Source: Chiloscyllium plagiosum
Taxonomy: Eukaryota
Assembly: GCF_004010195.1 (NCBI RefSeq)
Contig: NC_057719.1
Span: forward strand, 45,626,658 to 45,690,657
Direction of reading: 5' to 3'
DNA length: 64,000 nucleotides
Shown here: positions 9,971-63,965 of the stretch, in pieces
How positions within the stretch are numbered: position 1 is the first letter of the stretch
Layout of the letters: each line of letters starts with the position of its first letter
Made by a program: the position numbers and the translations under genes
Notes under the pieces: model-generated
Seen by the model: only the letters and a program-made list of their open reading frames with translations
Database searches by the model: none
What the model was told of the DNA's origin: nothing

Positions 9971-10925
9971 CCCTGAACATAGTTACTCAGATCCTAGGAA
10001 GCTGGTACATCCAGAAAAACATTGACAAGAAGATATTGGTAACTCCACCACTTGCTAGCTCTCCTTCAAGCAAGTCACCACCCTGACTAGGAAATGTGTT
10101 GTTCCTTCAATGCCAAAGTCCTGGAAATCTGTCCAGGGATTGTGAGTGCAAAATTACAAAATTACAAAATGGACTGCAGTAGTTCAAGGAGGCGGCTCAC
10201 CACCAGCTTTGCAAGGACAGATAGGAATGATCAACAAATGTTGGCCCAGTCAGTGATGTTCATATCCAGTTAACAAACTTAAAGAAAGGTACATCTTCTC
10301 CCTCTAAAAATTGGAACAGAACATCATGTTTCCACCCAATCTATGGGTCAGTAATGTGACCTCAGCTATAGTAAATGTGATCAGATTTTGATGCCATATG
10401 ATCCATGTATCCAAAGATTAAGAGCTGAAAAGATTTGCTAAAAAATATGAAGAGCTACAGTTATATGGAGAGATTGAAAATGTGGGTTATACTTCTAAGA
10501 GCAGAGGCGGTGAGACTGAGGAGAGAAATGTGTGTAAAATAATGAACAGTCTTACTGGAGTAAATAAGGAGAAACTGTTTCTAGTGACAAAAGGGGGATC
10601 CATTTAACTGATGCTGCCAAACCTGAATGTTTCCAGCATTTTCAGTTTTGATTTCAGATATCCAGCATCCAAAGTATTTTGCTTTTGACAGAGAGTTAGG
10701 TGATTAATAAAAGAAGTAGAGGCAACATGAGAAAAATAAGTATTGTGGTCTAGGATGCATTGCCTGAAGGATTGAGGGGGTATAGAAACAACAGTAACAT
10801 TCATATGAGAGGAGCGAATTACTGCAGATGGCGGGATGTGTCCTGCTGAAGACTCATCTAGATTTGAAACATTAGCTTGTTCTCTCTCCATGGATGCTGA
10901 CTGACATGCTGTGATCTCTAGCATT

Positions 10926-19688: not shown

Positions 19689-20374
19689 TTAAATGCAGAT
19701 ATGATCCATGCAGTGCTATTTTGGCCTTGAGGATAATTGCAGTGCCAGTATTTGAGCTGGTGGCTGCAATGAAGCAGTAGTAGTAGTAGTAGTAATGGTA
19801 AAGTAATGGTTAAAATAATATTGCTCAGAATCATCCTGTTGTCCTTGCCCATCTTCCAGATGCTGTAGTAGCTGAGCAAATGGCAATTTGTGAACATTTG
19901 GAAGAAACCGAGGGGGAGGATTGAAATAAGAGAAATGAGTTGGGGAGGAAAACAAGATATCCATGGTGATTCCATTGGGCCATTTCAGTGCACCTTTCAC
20001 ATGAGGGTGAGGAGAGGGTGCACAGGTTCCTCAAAGCAGCAACTTACCCTCACCCTGGATGGCCTCAGCAGTGTCAGATGTCACTGGCTGTGTGGTATAG
20101 ATTACAAGGGCTTTTTTGGACTCTCTCTCAAGAGCACTGAGGGGAAGCTGGTAGCTTATTTTTCCATTGATCATGCCAGTTCACACCATCTCCTCCAAAC
20201 AAACGTTAGTGACTATCTATCAGTATGTTTGAATGATGCTGTATAACTGTAATTCTGAGAAAGAGAGGTAAGTGTACAGCTGGCATGATGGGAAGGTATG
20301 AGTAGAAGATTGTAATATGAAGATATTTGGGGTGAGTTCTGACCCACTGTTAGTTGAGTGATGGATTTATGATG

Positions 20375-21020
20375 CACTGGGGCTGTTTTCCCTGGAGCGT
20401 CGGAGGCTGAGGGGTGACCTTATAGAGATTTACAAAATTATGAGGGACATGGCTAGGATAAATAGACAAAGTCTTTTCCCTGGGGTCGGGGAGTCCAGAA
20501 CGAGAGGGCATAGATTTAGGGTGAGAGGGGAAAGTTATAAAAAAGACCTAAGGTGGTACGTGTATTGAATGAGCTGCCAGAGGATGTGGTGGAGCTGAAA
20601 ATGTGTTGCTGGAAAAGCGCAACAGGTCAGGCAGCATCCAAGGAACAGGAGAATCAACATTTCAGGCATAAGCCCTTCTTCAGGAATGGTTCCTGAAGAA
20701 GGGCTTATGCCTGAAACGTCGATTCTCCTGTTCCTTTGATGCTGCCTGACCTGCTGCACTTTTCCAGCAACACATTTTCAGCTCTCATCTGCAGCCCTCA
20801 CTTTCTCCTAGAGGATGTGGTGGAGGCTGGTACAATTGCAACATTTAAGAGGCATTTGGATGGGTATATGAATAGGAAGGGTTTGGAGGGATATGGGCCG
20901 GGCGCTGGCAGGTGGGACTAGATTGGGTTGGGATATCTTGTCAGCATGGATGGGTTGGACCGAAGGGTCTGTTTCCATGCTGTACATCTCTATCTCTATC
21001 TCTATCTCTATCTCTATGAC
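20375..21020 (+). mobile_element. CR1 LINE 3' end, interrupted by a palindromic hammerhead element
   Basis: RRLRGDLIEIYKIM...EDVVEAGTIATFKRHLDGYM, with a (TCTATC)n tail at about 20987-21015. Confidence 0.93.
20595..20809. mobile_element. Palindromic Penelope pLTR-derived element with two opposed hammerhead motifs
   Basis: About 95 bp inverted arms around a 3 nt centre (ttcttcaggaa-tgg-ttcctgaagaa). 16 bp TSD agaggatgtggtggag at 20579-20594 and 20810-20825. Confidence 0.9.
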
Positions 21021-23975: not shown

Positions 23976-25074
23976 ATAAGAGCATAAGATCAGAAGATAT
24001 TGAAGCAGAATTAAACGATTTCACCCATTGAGTCTGCTTTGCCATTCAATCACGGCTGATATGTTTTCCAACTTCATTCTCCGCCTTCATCCCCAAACCC
24101 TTGATTCCCTTAGCAATCAAGAACCTATCTACCTCTGTCTTGAATACACTCAACGCCTTGACCTCTACATCCACCTATGGATATGAGTTCCACAGATTCA
24201 CCACCCTCTGGTTGAAGAAATTCCTCCTCAGGTCTAAAGGTTAGTCCCTTCTCTCTGAGGCTGTGCCATTGGGTCCATGTCTCGCCTACTGGGGAAAACA
24301 CCTTCTCCACGTCCACGCTATCCAGGCCTCTCAGTATTTTGTAAGTTTCAAAAAGATCCTCCCCTCATCCTTCTAAACTCCATCAAGCACAGACCTAGAA
24401 TCCTCAACCACTCCTCATACGAGAAGCCCACTATCCGAGTGATCATTCTTATAAACCTTCTCTGGACTCCCTCCTAGGCCAGCACAGCCTTCCTTAGGTA
24501 CAAGGCCTAAAATTGTTCAGAGTATTCCAAATACAGCTTGACTAGAACCTTATAGAGCCTCAGCAGTACATTTCTGCCCTTGTAATCAAGCCCATTTGAA
24601 ATGAATGTTAATATTGCATTTGCTTTCCTAACTGCCAACTGAACCTACATGTTAATCTTAAGAAAATCCTGAACTAGTACTCTTACATCCCTTTGTGTTT
24701 CAGATTTCCAAAGCCTTTTCTCATTTAGAAAATAGTCCATGCCTCTATTCTTCCAACCAAAATGCAAAACTTCACACTTTCCAATATTGTATTCCATCTA
24801 CTACTTCTTTTCCCACTACCCTAGCCTGTTCAACTCCTCTGCAGCATCCCTGCTTCCTCAACACTAGCTGTCCCTCTGCCTATCTTTGTGATGTCTACAA
24901 GTTAGTAACAATGCCCTCAGTTTCTTTGTCCAGATTGTTAATGTGTAACGTGAATGGTGGTGGTCCCAACACTGACTCCTGTGGAACTCCACTAGTTATT
25001 GGTTGCCATCCTGAAAAAGGCCCCTTGATCCCCTCTATTTGCTTTCTGCCAATCAGCCAATCCTCTATAATTTC

Positions 25075-25598
25075 CTCCACTCCACTCCCGGCACCTTCCC
25101 CTGCAACCGCAGGAGGTGCAAGACTTGCGCCCACACCTCCCGCCTCACCTCCCTCCAAGGCCCCAAAGGAAACTTCCATATCCGCCACAGATTCACCTGC
25201 ACCTCCACACACATCATCTATTGCATTCTCTGCACCCGATGTGGCCTCCTCTATATTGGGGAGACAGGCAGGCTACTTGCAGAGCGTTTCAGAGAACACC
25301 TCTGGGACACCCGGACCAACCAACCCAACCACGCTGTAGCTCAACATTTCAATTCCCCCTCCCACTCCACCAAGGATATGCAGGTCTTTGGACTCCACCA
25401 TCGCCAGACCACAACAANNNNNNNNNNNNNNNNNNNNNNNNNNNNNNNNNNNNNNNNNNNNNNNNNNNNNNNNNNNNNNNNNNNNNNNNNNNNNNNNNNA
25501 CGTCGATTCTCCTGTTCCCTGGATGCTGCCTGACCTGCTGCGCTTTTCCAGCAACACATTTCCAGCTCTGATCTCCAGCATCTGCAGACCTCACTTTC
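25075..25598 (+). mobile_element. Penelope-like element 3' fragment (GIY-YIG) with TSD
   Basis: PGTFPCNRRRCKTC...IIYCILCTRCGLLYIGETGRLLAERFREH. 14 bp TSD tcctctataatttc at 25061-25074 and 25599-25612. Confidence 0.93.
25418..25499. other. Assembly gap (N run)
   Basis: Run of n covering the position where the element's hammerhead would lie. Confidence 1.
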
Positions 25599-26429
25599 TC
25601 CTCTATAATTTCATTGCCTTGCCTATAATATTATAGGGTCTTATGTTATTTAGCAGCCTCCTGTGCAATATCTTATCAAATGCCTTCTGGATATCCAAAT
25701 TTATCATGTCCGCTGGCTCTCCTTTGTCTAACCGCCTTGTTACCACCCCAAAGAATTCTAAGAAATTTGTCAGGCATGACCTCTCCTTGATGAAGCCATG
25801 CTGACTTCACACTATTTTACAATGCATTTCCAAGTACTCCATATTCTTATTCTTAATATTGGACTCTAAACTCTTATCAACAACTGAGGTCAGGCTAACC
25901 AGCATATAGTTTCCTGTCTTCTGCCTCCCTTCCTTCTTAAACAAGGTGTTACATTAGCCATTTTCCAGTTCTCTGGAACCCTCCCTGATTCCAGTGATTC
26001 CTAAAAGATCACCACCAATGCTCCTACAATCTCTTCAACTATCTCCTTCAGAACTCTGGGTGTCGTCCATCTGGTCCAGTTTAATTATCAGAGCTTCCAG
26101 CTTCCCCAGCACCTTCACCTTAATGATAGCTGCTACACTCACCTTTGCTCCCCGACTCTCATGCAGTTCTGGCATTTTCCACTGTGAAGACTGATGCAAT
26201 CTATTCGGTTCCTCCACCATTTTGTATTTCCCCATTACTACTTCTCCAACCTCATTTTCCAGCAGTCCAATGTCCACTCTTACCTTTTAGATATCTGAAA
26301 AAACTTGTAGTCTTCTTTTATATTAGTAGTTAATTTGTTGTCATTTTTCATCTTCTCCCCTCTTATTGCTTTTTTAGTTGTCGTCTGCTGGGTTTTTTTA
26401 AAATCCAATCCATTGGCTTCCCATTAATC

Positions 26430-26528
26430 CTGGCTTCCCTGAAGCAGGGCTTATACCTGAAACGTCGATTCTCCTGCTCCTTGGATGCTGCCTGACCTGC
26501 TGCGCTTTTCCAGCAACACATTTTTCAG
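26430..26528 (+). mobile_element. About 100 bp Penelope pLTR-derived insertion with degenerate hammerhead
   Basis: CTGAAGCAGGGCTTATACCTGAAACGTC. 12 bp TSD ttcccattaatc at 26418-26429 and 26529-26540. Confidence 0.85.
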
Positions 26529-26561
26529 TTCCCATTAATCTTCACCATATTACATGCTTTT

Positions 26562-32145: not shown

Positions 32146-32659
32146 AATCATAAAACCACAAGATTTAGGAGTAGAAATAGACCATTTGATCTGTCAAGTC
32201 TGCTCTACCACTGAATGAGATCATGGGTGATCTGGTAATCCTAAAATTCCGCTTTCCTGCTTTATCCCCATAATCTTTGATCCCCTTATGATTTAATAAT
32301 ATATCTAACTCAGCCTTGACTACACTTATTTACCCAGCATATTTGTGCAGTGCTACAGGGACAGATCCAACTCAAAGCCATAGGCTCCTCCATTTAAATA
32401 TGTTTATCAGACCGCAGGTATCTCAGGGCAGGCATTTTTAGGCAATCAGCACTCTGAGTAAAATAAAAACAATGACATTTGTGGGCAGAGGAGAAGCAAG
32501 TTGTTGTGCTATGGCTGCCTGAAAGAGGAATGAAACAAATACAATTTTAACATTCAAAGAGGAACTTGATCTCTACTTCAAAAGAAAATGATTTAGGAGG
32601 GGAAAACTGTTAGTAAGTCCAGTTGCATAGGTCATTCAGAGAGTAGACTTTAAAGGCAT

Positions 32660-32760
32660 AAACAAAAACAGAAGTTGCTGGAAAAGCTCAGCAGGTCTGG
32701 TAGCAACTGTGAAGAGAAATCAGAGTTAACGCTGCAGGTCTGGTGACCCTTCCTCAGGAC
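32660..32760 (-). mobile_element. Penelope pLTR-derived unit with degenerate hammerhead
   Basis: Reverse complement reads CTGAGGAAGGGTCACCAGACCTGCAGCGTT. Same family as 61060-61225. Confidence 0.65.
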
Positions 32761-49330: not shown

Positions 49331-50166
49331 GAATTCCTTTTTCTCAGGCTTCCGTTCAGCTTTTATCATTTGGGCTGTGATGTAAACCTGACTTCCTTCC
49401 TCTTTAGGTTTTGCCCAGCTTTCAGTATTACCATAGTCAGTGTTACCATTGACTATCACAAGACATATGGTGAATGTCAATACTGATGTATTTGAACTTT
49501 TCACTGTTACAAAAGTATCAAGACCTTGAAATAAAGTTAAAAATCACTGGTGCAACATATGTCAAAGAAAGAACATTAAAATAAGTTTGACACATGATGG
49601 ACAATGCCTCTAAATACATATAATAACTGGAGTGAAAATCAGCCACAAATCCAAAACACATGGTAAAAATACAAGTTGTCAACAGACAGATTTTTCAGAA
49701 AAACAAGTAACCAAACCAATAAGCCCATATTGTAACTAAGATAGCTTCTTGCTATCCTCAATCCTGATTCAGAAATATGCTATTTGTTCAGTATCACATG
49801 GTCAACATCCAGGAAGTCCTGAAGTACCACTATCATGGAATGCCATCACTCACGTTCACATGGCAACTCAAGATGGACAATATCACAGCTATGTCAGTAA
49901 GTCCTGATTGCAAACTAAAAACAAAAGCTTGGCCCTGAAAATATGCAGAGCAGTGGCGTGGTGGAAGTGTTAGATGTGCCTACCAGGAACCTCTGATCTT
50001 CACCCTGCCCGAGTATATGAGGATGAGAGGCACCATCAGGAATACATCCTAGGAACCAGCTAGCAGATACCAAGAATTCTAGCATAGACAGTTTTGTTAT
50101 TTGGTGGAGGAATCAACAGCATATTTCTAAAATTCTAGTGCAAATTGAAGTTTGATAACTTTGGAT

Positions 50167-50266
50167 TCCTTTCCTGAAGAAGGGCTTATGCCCGAAACGT
50201 CGATTCTCCTGGTCCTTGGATGCTGCCTGACCTGCTGCGCTTTTCCAGCAACACATTTTCAGTTCT
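50167..50266 (+). mobile_element. 100 bp Penelope pLTR-derived insertion with intact hammerhead
   Basis: 11 bp TSD taactttggat at 50156-50166 and 50267-50277. Confidence 0.9.
50171..50205 (+). ncRNA. Minimal hammerhead ribozyme
   Basis: ttc-CTGAAGA-a-GGGC ttat GCCC-GAAA-C-GTC-gatt. Core and stem II are perfect; predicted cleavage after 50201. Confidence 0.8.
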
Positions 50267-51008
50267 TAACTTTGGATGTTACATGGTAAAAACAAACTCT
50301 AAATGCTACAATGAAGAATAACTCATAATGTTTTACTACAGTTGAAATTTCTAGGCTTCAACATTACTGCTGTTTCTTAAGTTATATTGTCCGATTTGAT
50401 TTCCCAAACTTCCATCTTTTCATTCACTTCTATTTCAATCAATTCCAGCACTGTTAATACAATGTCAGCAACATTAGCATAAGAAAATCATGAACTGATT
50501 TCATTACTCATTTACAATGTCATCTCTAAAGGTATATTTCTGTGACCCTGTTCCACACTCATTCTCCCCACCCCCCCCACTCCTTTTTAAAAGGGCAAGA
50601 AGGAATTCAAAAATATTTAATACTTTTGTAGGTTCGGCTAGGTCTGGTAAATAATGGGCGCCCCAATTACAAGGCGGATGATAGATCTGAATTTTTGTCA
50701 ATAATGCAGAGGAACATGAATGATGAAGTGTCTGGCTTTGGAACTGCCCTCCACCTATTAACCCACTCAGGCAAGTGACATTATTTCAGTTTAGGAAGTC
50801 TGTGCTTCTTAGGGACTTGCAAGAATCTGTAATATCCCAGGATATCGATGTCCTGGTCTCTTTACTAGCTCTTTCCATACATTGTCACCAGACGTACAGC
50901 TGGACTGAACTGGAAGGCATAGGAATTTCATCCATCTGATAACCATTATTCTTGCATTGCAGACTCAGCTGTTTAAATGTACTATTGGAAAACATTGATA
51001 TTACTTAC

Positions 51009-54689: not shown

Positions 54690-54950
54690 GCAAAAGTGAG
54701 GACTGCAAATGCTGGAGATTAGAGTCAAGATGATGGTGCTGAAAAAGCACAGCAGGTCAGGCAGAAGCCAAGAAGCAGGAAAATCGATGTTTCAGGAAAA
54801 AGCCCTTCATTAGAAAGGAGGCTGGGAGCCTCGGGGGGTCTCCACTGTCGATTTTCCTGCTCCTTGGATGCTGCCTGACCTGCTGTGCTTTTCCAGCACC
54901 ACTCTAAATCTAGACTCTGGTTTCTAGCATCTGCAGTCCTTGTTTTTACC
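54690..54950. mobile_element. Inverted pair of Penelope pLTR units with degenerate hammerhead
   Basis: The left arm (gaaaaagcacagcaggtcaggcag) is inverted relative to the right arm (ctgcctgacctgctgtgcttttcc). The minus-strand core reads CTAATGA...GAAACATC. Confidence 0.8.
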
Positions 54951-55140: not shown

Positions 55141-55594
55141 ACAAGAAAAATCAAATTAAAGGGAAAGCAACATTTATATTGGAAGGGAGGAGATGGTTTA
55201 GTGGATGGCAAGTGGTCACTGGTAGAGCTGTTGCCATGGAGAATGAATCGGTTAATGATGACTGCCAGCTAACTCATACACTTTGTTTGATTTTTAAACC
55301 AAGCAGATTGACTGTGATTGGTCAAGGTATTGTCTTGAGAAATGTATGAGAGAATGGCTGCCATCCATTTTGTTGAGTTGGAATGGATCCAGGGTCGTTT
55401 GTATTAATATATGTGGCATGCACTATATCACACGTGCAATGACATTCGTATAACCACATTATGCATTTGTGTATATGTAGAACTTTTTTTTACTAGACAG
55501 TAGCATCCTGTTCATGGTGAAAACCACTCATGTTGTTACTGAATACTAGCAGCAAAAAAACAGCCAGCATCCTCTCAATCCTCTCAACCTTGGT

Positions 55595-55686
55595 TTGCTG
55601 ATGAAGGGCTTTTGCCGAAACGTTGATTCTCTTGCTCCTCAGATGCTAGCTGACCTGCTGTGCATTTCCAGCACCACACTCTCATC
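55595..55686 (+). mobile_element. Penelope pLTR-derived unit with hammerhead core
   Basis: CTGATGA-ag-GGC tttt GCC-GAAA-C-GTT, flanked by repeated tcctctcaatc (probable TSD). Confidence 0.8.
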
Positions 55687-55714
55687 TCCTCTCAATCATA
55701 GACAATCAATCAAT

Positions 55715-61059: not shown

Positions 61060-61225
61060 AAAACCAAAAGAAACTGCGGTTGCTATAAATCAGAAACTAA
61101 AACAGAAATTGTAGGAAAAGCTCAGCAGGTCTGGCAGCATCTGTGTTCTGAGGAAGGCTCACTCGACCCAAAATGTTAACTCTGATTTCTCTCACAGATG
61201 CTGCCAGACCTGCTGAACCTTTCCA
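61060..61225. mobile_element. Foldback Penelope pLTR-derived element with degenerate hammerhead
   Basis: Arms ctcagcaggtctggcagcatctgtg and cacagatgctgccagacctgctga enclose CTGAGGAAGG...ACCCAAAATGTT. Confidence 0.75.
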
Positions 61226-62516
61226 ACTATTGCTGCTTTGGTTTAAGGCCTAACAATATTGCAAAAAGTGCTCTTTGTAACATGTCTTTCATAATGCCAG
61301 TTCCTCAAACTTCGGAATCATGCAGATGGACTGGAATAATCTCTCACGGCTCTCTAATCTACTTTGTTGCCAAGTATGAAACATTGAAAGTGTTCTATCC
61401 AACTCACTTAATCTCTTGGAAAAAATAAATGACCAATAAATGAAGTCCTTACAAGAAAATATCAGGGAAATTTCTCCCTCAGAGATAGTCAACTAAAGGT
61501 GAGCAGTTGCATTCTCATGAGTCAGTGTTCCAAAGGGAATGTAAAAATTCATCTTAATCTTATTCTTTTAATATCCATCTTATTGTATGACAGATATTTA
61601 TACTTTTAAACAAATTCCCTCAGCGGTACACAACAGGTGCAATTTGCTGAAGTCACGGATCTACTAGCTGGGGAAAACATCTTTTAGTTTTACTGGAATC
61701 TTTTAAATTTACAATATTTTTATCGAGCTTTGTAATCATAATTCAAATTTATAGAAACTGATTTTCATGTATGTTTAATCATGTCTTCTACAGATTTAAA
61801 TACTTAGATTATGACGCTTACCAATTTTCTTTTATTCAATGAAAATTGTTGTGATGATTTAGAATTGAATATTCTTCTGTTTGTCCTGATGAGGGCAAGA
61901 TAAAAAAAGTCTGGCATCACAGCTCTCTTTTCAACAATGTTATTTCAATTCATCAAATACACTTCAGACATGTGTACACTGGTGATAAACAGATATGGCA
62001 TGGACTTTATATTGTGGTTAATTCCTTAATAACATTCAAGTTCTTACCCTTTTCATTAATTGCTAATGGATGCCCATCCATTGCATGCCAAGTATTCTCT
62101 CCTAAATTACATTATCCATTTACGGGCATATTCCTACACAGTTTAGAGCCATCAACATATTTCCATATTTATCCTTACAAGAAGCCTGAGCAACAGAAGC
62201 TCAGAATAGACCTCTGAGAAAGTTCATTAATGATGGGTTTGTGACATCAGCTTTTCCTCTTATTGATCATTCCATTGCTTAGGCAATTCCCAATGCAGTA
62301 TATAATTTATCATTCGTTCCATGACCCTAATCTTCAACAGTCTCATTGAGCTTTCCCAAATACCTTGCTAAATCCAATATATATTCTAAACATTCAATGA
62401 TATTGTTATATTGTGATGATATAATGGCTTTGAAAGGTGCATTTCTCCTGTTCTTTTTTATGAAGAAAGGTTGAGAGAGGAGCACCGATCAGTCTACTCA
62501 GAGCCAATAAACAATA

Positions 62517-63965
62517 CAGTCATAGAGGTGTACAGCATGGAAACAGACCCTTCGGTCCAACTCGTCCATGCTGACCAGATATCCAAACCCAATCTATTCC
62601 CACCTGCCAGCACCTGGCCCATATCCCTCCAAACCCTTCCTATTCATATACCCACCCAGATGCCTTTTAAATGTTGCAATTGTCCCAAGCCTACAGCACT
62701 TCCTTTGGCAGCTCATTCCATACACGTATCACCCTCTGTGTGAAAAACTTGCCCCTTAGGTCTCTATTATATCTTTCCCCTCTCACCCTAAACCTATGCC
62801 CTCTAGTTCTGGACTCCCCCACCCCAGAGAAAAGACTTTGTCTATTTATCCTATCCAAGCCATTCATGATTTTATAAACCTCTATAAGGTCATCCCTCAG
62901 CCTCCGACACTCCAGGGAAAACAGCACTAGCCTATTCAATCTCTCCCTGTAGCTCAAATCCTCCAACACTGGCAACATTCTTGTAATTTTTTTCTGAACT
63001 CTTTCAAGTTTCACAATATCCTTCCAATATGAAGGAGACCAGAATTGCACTCAATATTCCAACAGTGGCCTAACCAATGTCCTGTACAACCGCAACATGA
63101 CCTCCCAACTCCTGTACTCAATACTCTGACCAATAAAGGAAAGCATACCAAACACCTTCTTCACTATCCTATCTACCTGCGGCTCTACTTTCAAGGAGCT
63201 ATGAACCTGCACTCCAAGGTCTTTTTGTTCAGCAACACTCCCTAGGACCTTACCATTAAGTGTATAAGTCTTGCTAAGATTTGCTTTCCCAAAATGCAGT
63301 ACCTCACATTTATCTAAATTAAACTCCATCTGCCACTTCTCAGCCCATTGGCCCATCTGATAAAGATTCGGAGGTAACCTTCTTCGCTGCCCACTACACC
63401 TGCAATTTTGGTGTCATCTGCAAACTTACTAACTATACCTCTTATGCCCACATTCAAATCATTTATATAAATGATGAAAAGTAGTGGACCCAGTACCAAT
63501 CCTTGTGGCACTCCACTGGTCACAGGCCTCCAATCTGAAAAACAACCCTCCACCACCAACCACTGCCTTTTACCTTTGAGCCAGTTCTGTATCCAAATGG
63601 CTAGTTCTCCCTGTATTCAATGAGATCTAAGCTGGAAATGTGTTGCTGGAAAAGCGCAGCAGGTCAGGCAGCATCCAGGGAACAGGAGAATCGACGTTCC
63701 GGGCATAAGCCCTTATTCACGAACGTCGATTCTCCTGTTCCCTGGATGCTGCCTGACCTGCTGCGCTTTTCCAGAAACACATTTCCAGCTCTGATCTCCA
63801 GCATCTGCAGACCTCACTTTCCCTTCAATGAGATCTAACCTTGCTAACCAGTCTCCCATGGGGAACCGTGTCAAAAGCTTTACTGAAGTCCGTATAGATC
63901 ACATCTACCACTCTGCCCTCATCAATCCTCTTGGTTACTTCTTCAAAAAAACTCAATCAAGTTTG
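62517..63965 (-). mobile_element. Young CR1 LINE fragment
   Basis: [25 protein letters not shown] and KFADDTK, with the 3' tail at about 62517. Confidence 0.96.
63631..63823. mobile_element. Palindromic Penelope pLTR-derived element with TSD
   Basis: Inverted arms of about 68 bp. 15 bp TSD ttcaatgagatctaa at 63616-63630 and 63824-63838. The hammerhead core is disrupted. Confidence 0.9.

Follow-up and report, generated by a model that had tools for sequence, protein, structure and literature searches.

The palindromic insertion analyzed here is very probably a one-off, dead insertion of an autonomous, endonuclease-bearing Penelope-like element (PLE) of the Neptune/Nematis type which was formed de novo and head to head. 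It is located within a LINE in a stretch of 64,000 nucleotides that was analyzed as a whole, here referred to as the window. The layout of the locus is TSD, inverted arm without tail, direct arm with tail, TSD (Table 1). Element positions are counted from +1 = 20690; in this numbering the hammerhead core begins at +4, and +31 is the final base of the GUC triplet.

Table 1. Features of the focal insertion and of the adjacent host LINE, given as positions of the window.
Feature	Position	Strand	Remarks
Host LINE, left part	20378..20594	+	C-terminal ORF2 region; collinear with 6 window copies
Left TSD	20579..20594	+	16 bp; final 3 nt shared with the element
Inverted tail-less pLTR arm	20595..20688	-	Element about -2 to +92; from arm alignment and 305 reads
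Decayed minimal type I hammerhead	20656..20683	-	Core intact; G10.1-U11.1; stem III palindrome lost; GUU triplet
Junction base	20689		Mismatches the commonest native continuation; untemplated or later mutation
Direct pLTR arm	20690..20784	+	Begins 3 nt ahead of the hammerhead core
Minimal type I hammerhead	20693..20720	+	CUGAAGA, extra A, 4-bp stem II with G-U closing pair, GAAA, palindromic ACGU, GUC triplet ending at 20720
PLE tail	20785..20809	+	This arm only; 9-nt deletion; compared with tailed copies 25500-25602 and 63722-63823
Right TSD	20810..20825	+	16 bp; same as left copy
Host LINE, 3' end	20826..21015	+	Short (ATCTCT)n tail

The palindromic unit and its target site

The inverted arms (20592-20686 and 20690-20784) were each 95 nt long and 95% complementary with a gap of 3 nt between them. 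The fold of the palindrome as a single strand was calculated at -184.1 kcal/mol (z = -20.5), and none of 200 shuffled sequences was equally stable. This bears out the palindrome with arms of about 95 bp proposed in an earlier note on this DNA. The arms are indeed inverted, but the symmetry implied by a palindromic unit did not hold: within the insert of 215 bp between the two TSD copies only the right arm carries an extra tail of 25 nt, which renders the unit asymmetric. When compared with the intact copy at 25500-25602, this tail represents 34 nt minus a deletion of 9 nt. Tails in the intact copies of the arm family are 34-37 nt in length, and the left focal arm has none. The two focal arms differ from each other at 5 sites, 3 of which are CpG transitions.

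The centre had been described as three spacer bases, tgg. Three nucleotides do lie between the arms, but in 305 raw RNA reads the native family sequence tracks the focal one to 20688 and departs only behind it. Two of the three bases therefore match upstream sequence of the element, and just 20689 is left unexplained. In the six-frame translation of the unit every frame had 71 codons or less, stops were present in five of the six and PLE domains were absent; the statement that the insert is non-coding thus holds for PLE domains.

The insert is bracketed by an exact direct repeat of 16 bp. Flanking repeats of at least 11 bp were found for only 3 of 2000 random intervals of 200 bp, and two of these three were the focal locus itself. 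The host LINE, judged by its protein motifs, is presumably a CR1 element. All six of its other window copies contain the 16-mer once, in agreement with the clean insertion into a LINE 3' end with a TSD of 16 bp that had been claimed. The left TSD and the element share a microhomology of 3 nt, located at the right edge of this TSD copy and at the terminus of the inverted arm. A T in both TSD copies, at a position where all six window LINE copies carry A, was considered as a private marker and rejected, T being a common variant: A accounts for only about 61% of the contig depth and 75% of the reads at this position, and the T in both TSDs is therefore weak support.

Depth jumps in the bin 20368-20398, at the start of the host LINE. 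A deletion of 22 bp in the host LINE at 20553, located 26 nt upstream of the TSD and with a 2-nt microhomology at its edges, is a locus-specific marker. The contig of organism B includes the flank and the first part of the host LINE, with 9 substitutions and 3 gaps in 593 nt, and ends at 20405.

The arms and their hammerhead cores

The right arm matches 15 places in the window, 12 of which are 56-120 nt long. A close copy (25500-25602) is located directly 3' of a GIY-YIG frame (25015-25416; PF01541, E 8.9e-5), and in a second, older case (1607-2283) the copy near 2192 is preceded by a similar frame, which was left unscored by Pfam. Both of these window frames carry a CX4CX2C linker and, additionally, two Cys are present within the GIY-YIG core of the frame 25015-25416. 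According to Craig et al. 2021 (PMC8557442), a CX2-5CxxC linker upstream of GIY-YIG together with Cys inside the core mark Neptune/Nematis. Because the close copy lies directly downstream of the GIY-YIG frame, the arm is assigned on sequence grounds to the pLTR end of a PLE with a putative Neptune/Nematis-type endonuclease, the link between arm and frame crossing a short run of N in both cases.

No full-length parent element with RT and endonuclease was found in the ORF list of the window. A search for an exact 29-nt arm pattern gave 0 loci in viral, metagenome and prokaryote contigs. Neither this family nor a palindromic PLE master is described in the literature listings that we searched, to which most subscription papers and Repbase/Dfam did not belong. 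An ATG in hammerhead loop II opens a frame of 26 codons in intact arms (20690-20787 and relatives), which ends just beyond the internal 3' end site; the ORF of the Anolis element likewise starts inside the hammerhead, a resemblance that may be due to chance. A more divergent hammerhead-like core followed by weak arm similarity is present at 10846-10920 and is probably an old PLE end. Another PLE-like family with a CUGAGGA core is represented by a palindrome at 61091-61245 and a solo copy at 32657-32760. The former consists of a short inverted arm and a direct arm beginning 2 nt ahead of the core; a TSD was not found there.

In the focal unit a CUGAAGA...GAAA core reads outward on each strand, and in both arms it contains an unpaired base between 9 and 10.1. 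Of the two back-to-back hammerheads claimed before, this outward orientation of the cores was confirmed; as ribozymes they are minimal and decayed and have no Rfam hammerhead match. Rfam at gathering scores gave 0 matches over the whole window. The 14 sub-threshold matches over 20550-20850 were mostly to generic miRNA-hairpin models, none to a hammerhead, and were dismissed as chance. The pair G10.1-C11.1 is G-U in both focal arms and G-C in all three other copies examined, which argues for CpG decay at the focal locus. The self-duplex of the stem III palindrome was calculated at -3.1 kcal/mol for the right arm and +0.8 kcal/mol for the left arm.

The focal hammerheads share with the min-HHRs of metazoan PLEs the CUGANGA core, the extra unpaired base before stem II, the lack of a loop III and, in the right arm only, the palindromic positions 15.2-16.2, as described in PMC4209133. 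They differ from these in a stem II of 4 bp, a helix I of about 2 contiguous pairs and in the decay of both. Dual min-HHRs on opposite strands are already known at distances of 100-700 bp (Cervera and De la Pena 2014, PMC4209133), whereas the focal cores are only 9 nt apart. The activity of min-HHRs in vitro is given as low in that paper, and a shark example is absent from its results and discussion text.

Since loop III is lacking, cleavage is predicted to need a dimer. The ribozymes are located on opposite strands and a single transcript therefore cannot provide the dimer partner. Furthermore, the cores read outward, so that transcription of either strand passes through the antisense arm before it reaches the ribozyme. 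Keeping the ribozyme open against the foldback would cost 52 kcal/mol on the plus and 61 kcal/mol on the minus strand as calculated. The competition between ribozyme fold and foldback suggested in the earlier note is not supported by this calculation and the order of transcription; the foldback is predicted to win over the ribozyme fold, which leaves the ribozymes as passengers in this model.

Related insertions and the variability of centres

EN+ PLEs often carry an inverted 5'-truncated copy at their 5' end and a tail of 30-40 bp at one end (Craig et al. 2021, PMC8557442), and the same layout with TSDs of 8-10 bp was described for PLE insertions of rotifers (Arkhipova et al. 2013, PMC3846280). 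With the complex insertions in both papers the focal unit has in common the head-to-head inverted copy on the 5' side, the one-sided tail, a TSD of variable length, the hammerhead in the pLTR and the palindromic junction. It differs in that no ORF or body is present between the repeats, in that both arms stop at the hammerhead 5' edge, and in its TSD of 16 bp, which is longer than in the rotifer examples. On the features tested the focal unit is an EN+ PLE insertion.

In vitro data are available for the Anolis PLE (PAc), where two RT start sites bound the tail (Frangieh et al. 2024, PMC11167929). Both target strands were cut and extended, a dimer was predicted and hammerhead cleavage was not needed for insertion. 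Two start sites bounding the tail downstream of the hammerhead are shared with the family studied here, for which they are deduced from arm ends. PAc belongs to the clade Penelope/Poseidon, in contrast to the Neptune/Nematis-type marks found here, and it prefers AT-rich targets, whereas the focal TSD is rich in purines and G. Among the PAc results in the excerpted text of PMC11167929, head-to-head joined products do not appear. Non-LTR retrozymes (Li et al., bioRxiv 10.64898/2026.07.22.740005) are likewise non-coding, derived from PLE pLTRs and equipped with a type I hammerhead. These are head-to-tail tandems with hammerheads on the same strand, whereas the focal arms are inverted, and the assignment was ruled out for this reason; being head to head, the focal unit cannot give unit-length circles, unlike retrozymes.

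MITEs, which are non-autonomous DNA transposons, are short, non-coding and hairpin-forming and have terminal inverted repeats and a fixed short TSD. Being short, non-coding, hairpin-forming and flanked by a TSD, the focal unit resembles them. It was excluded from this class by its retroelement tail, which lies outside the inverted repeat, and by the TSDs of the family, which range from 11 to 16 bp.

The ends of eight young arms in the window were compared. At the 3' side, five end at +92 to +95 (two inverted and three solo arms) and three at the tail end. At the 5' side, six start at -2 to +4 and one at +26 to +28, and one start was unreadable. A TSD of at least 11 bp was present at five of the eight loci tested (16, 15, 12, 11 and 11 bp), with none credible at the other three. 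Three solo tail-less arms, two young and one older, have their own TSDs of 11-12 bp. By analogy, the two 3' end classes resemble the two RT start sites which define the tail in vitro according to PMC11167929.

The solo tail-less arms 26418-26540, 50156-50277 and 55570-55697 carry a few extra bases at the 5' junction, and those at 26.4 kb copy neighbouring target. Contig joints lead from 20687 to 20657, 20653 and 20649 (+30, +34 and +38), and arms starting at +26 to +29 are present in the window. There is a hint of a second 5' end class near the hammerhead cut site (+31/32).

In total, four palindromes were found in the window: the focal one, 63630-63823 with a TSD of 15 bp, about 54690-54950, and 61091-61245. 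All four centres differ, the latter two palindromes being older or belonging to other families. The second of these (63616-63838) is of the same family as the focal one and younger, with a 15-bp TSD and arms that differ at 1 of 69 sites. The start of its direct arm (+26 to +28) falls near the ribozyme cut site, and where its inverted arm ends on the outside, the target is similar to the sequence of the element. At about 54690-54950 an older head-to-head pair is located, in which both arms are tailed and clearly unlike, the tail included; a credible TSD is lacking and about 30 nt of element upstream sequence are present at the centre. The pair may have joined two subfamilies within a single insertion; two RNA templates would then be favoured.

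Both focal arms carry the subfamily markers +46T/+89T, and both arms of 63630-63823 carry +46C/+89C. The linked C variants (20598 and 20641) accounted for 20-28%, 15-21% and 22-26% of the depth in three runs of organism A and for 0.45-0.7% in the run of organism B, contig depth not being equal to copy number; the unique flanks of A and B are about 98% identical. The +46C/+89C subfamily represents a recent lineage-specific PLE burst in organism A. As the subfamily found in both arms of the 63.6-kb copy is nearly absent in organism B, the palindromes arose separately in successive subfamilies. Additionally, a C-to-T change at +23 which is carried by about 25% of the family is present in both focal arms. 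Its presence in both arms is equally compatible with a single template, with copying by fold-back and with a master.

In raw RNA reads the depth of 455 at 20687 dropped to 18 at 20689 and 21 at 20690, and the last bin had about 3.6. Thus, only 18-21 of the 455 reads at the inner end of the arm (about 4%) enter the focal centre and less than 1% extend to the last bin. Libraries may contain too few hairpins, an effect that would lower the figure of 4%. In contigs, the depth at 20689 was 3.5-11% of that at 20687, and 36-60% of it carries the native A.

Of at least 267 joints (all three contig runs reached saturation), 15 were listed, 3 of them within the LINE and 12 leading from arm to arm. These 12 are all different and each was present in at least 1-4 contigs per run, joining an arm cut at 20614-20655 to 20690-20696, a range which is bounded by the end of the reference. 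One other near-perfect centre, with 4 nt left out at 20687, was found in at least 19, 15 and 18 contigs of the three DNA runs with summed depths of 24,521, 6,276 and 20,967, respectively. A centre with 1 nt left out at 20690 was present in at least 14, 1 and 7 contigs. The recurrent centre reflects either convergence at a hot spot or a propagating palindromic sub-lineage; where two cDNAs both stop at one edge, a microhomology of 1 nt would lead repeatedly to such centres. The comparison of junctions proposed in the earlier note thus had a mixed outcome: the four window centres and the 12 listed joints are variable, but one other centre recurs.

Routes of formation and their meaning

Provided that the palindrome formed de novo, we consider priming on two strands followed by run-off at the RNA 5' end and end-joining as the likeliest route, at slightly better than even chances. 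Here, the RT-endonuclease, probably as a dimer, would nick both strands 16 nt apart. The bottom-strand 3'-OH would prime a cDNA at the tail end of the pLTR RNA (about +129), and the top-strand 3'-OH a second cDNA at the internal start (+92 to +95), possibly aided by the 3-nt match to the target. Both cDNAs would run off near the hammerhead 5' edge, which is probably the 5' end of the RNA rather than the cut site at +31/32, and would then be end-joined head to head. The arms would have been identical at birth and have drifted since at the 5 sites. A read-through transcript would form a stable hairpin of about 95 bp in which the ribozymes cannot fold.

An alternative which concerns only this route is fold-back. 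After one TPRT the cDNA, or an antisense template, would prime itself and then be joined to the target by microhomology. Junction palindromes of the head-to-head type were read as self-priming by Arkhipova et al. 2013 (PMC3846280), and the microhomology of 3 nt with which the inverted arm ends on the outside, as well as +23T, +46T and +89T in both arms, are in keeping with it. However, the inverted arms end at +92 to +95 just as the TSD-flanked solo arms do, and a shared end site would be predicted from a start site of RT but not from a stop at random. The arms of the older palindrome at 54.7-54.95 kb differ at many sites including the tail, and extension of both strands was observed in vitro (PMC11167929). 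Fold-back is therefore possible but takes second place to two-strand priming within the de novo case.

The de novo case itself has to be weighed against a palindromic, non-autonomous master which is transcribed and retrotransposed whole, the focal unit being one of its copies. Such a master would account for the clean TSD round the whole unit, for arms of a single subfamily and, with 15-19 contigs in each of the three DNA runs, for the recurrence of a different near-perfect centre. The four centres of the four window palindromes, the replacement of the subfamily in both arms of the 63.6-kb copy and the small share of RNA reads passing the focal centre speak against it, and a hairpin of -184 kcal/mol would presumably be a poor template for RT. 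We regard a master as unlikely. The same low probability is given to a sub-lineage of head-to-head units that would act as a self-complementary retro-MITE copied whole by the PLE machinery, with the recurrent centre as its signature and the focal copy as a variant. If this were true, its RNA would be its own antisense and would silence its own ribozymes. The MITE-like hairpin mobilised as a unit, one of the two readings offered originally, is not supported for the focal copy. The one-sided tail, the variable centres and the subfamily pattern support the second reading, in which a Penelope insertion is pared down to its inverted 5'-truncated pLTR.

Two separate insertions, of a tailed arm and later of an opposite tail-less arm at its 5' junction, are conceivable in view of the abundance of arms (12 long matches in 64 kb) and of a PLE endonuclease that cuts its own pLTR in vitro (PMC11167929), but a single 16-bp TSD encloses both arms, no second TSD is present at the centre and both arms belong to one subfamily, which makes this very improbable. 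Least probable of all is an assembly artefact, either a collapse or a fold-back chimera. Short-read assemblies are troubled by PLE inversions (PMC8557442), and in runs X1, X5 and X9 the contigs extend through the unique flank into the LINE, where they break at 20404-20405, so that the focal junctions are unbridged. Against an artefact stand the 5 differences between the arms with their 3 CpG transitions, the one-sided tail, the exact TSD and similar head-to-head joints in contigs of three runs from three studies.

With regard to expression, one raw RNA run (one library, of which about 2 in 100 were read) gave 0 reads on 18 unique-flank bins. In a search for a host gene, Pfam matched none of the 150 longest of 217 non-repeat frames, a search which short exons would escape.

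The focal locus itself is one dead copy of a described type of insertion. The integration of PLEs is still poorly understood, and here the population of stubs is useful: about a dozen arms per 64 kb record where RT started (+92 to +95 or the tail end) and where it stopped, at the hammerhead 5' edge. Counts of such stubs could serve to distinguish two-strand priming from fold-back as the origin of inverted pLTRs, and the hammerhead edge from the cut site as the start of the template RNA. The hairpins, if transcribed, would be a source of dsRNA.
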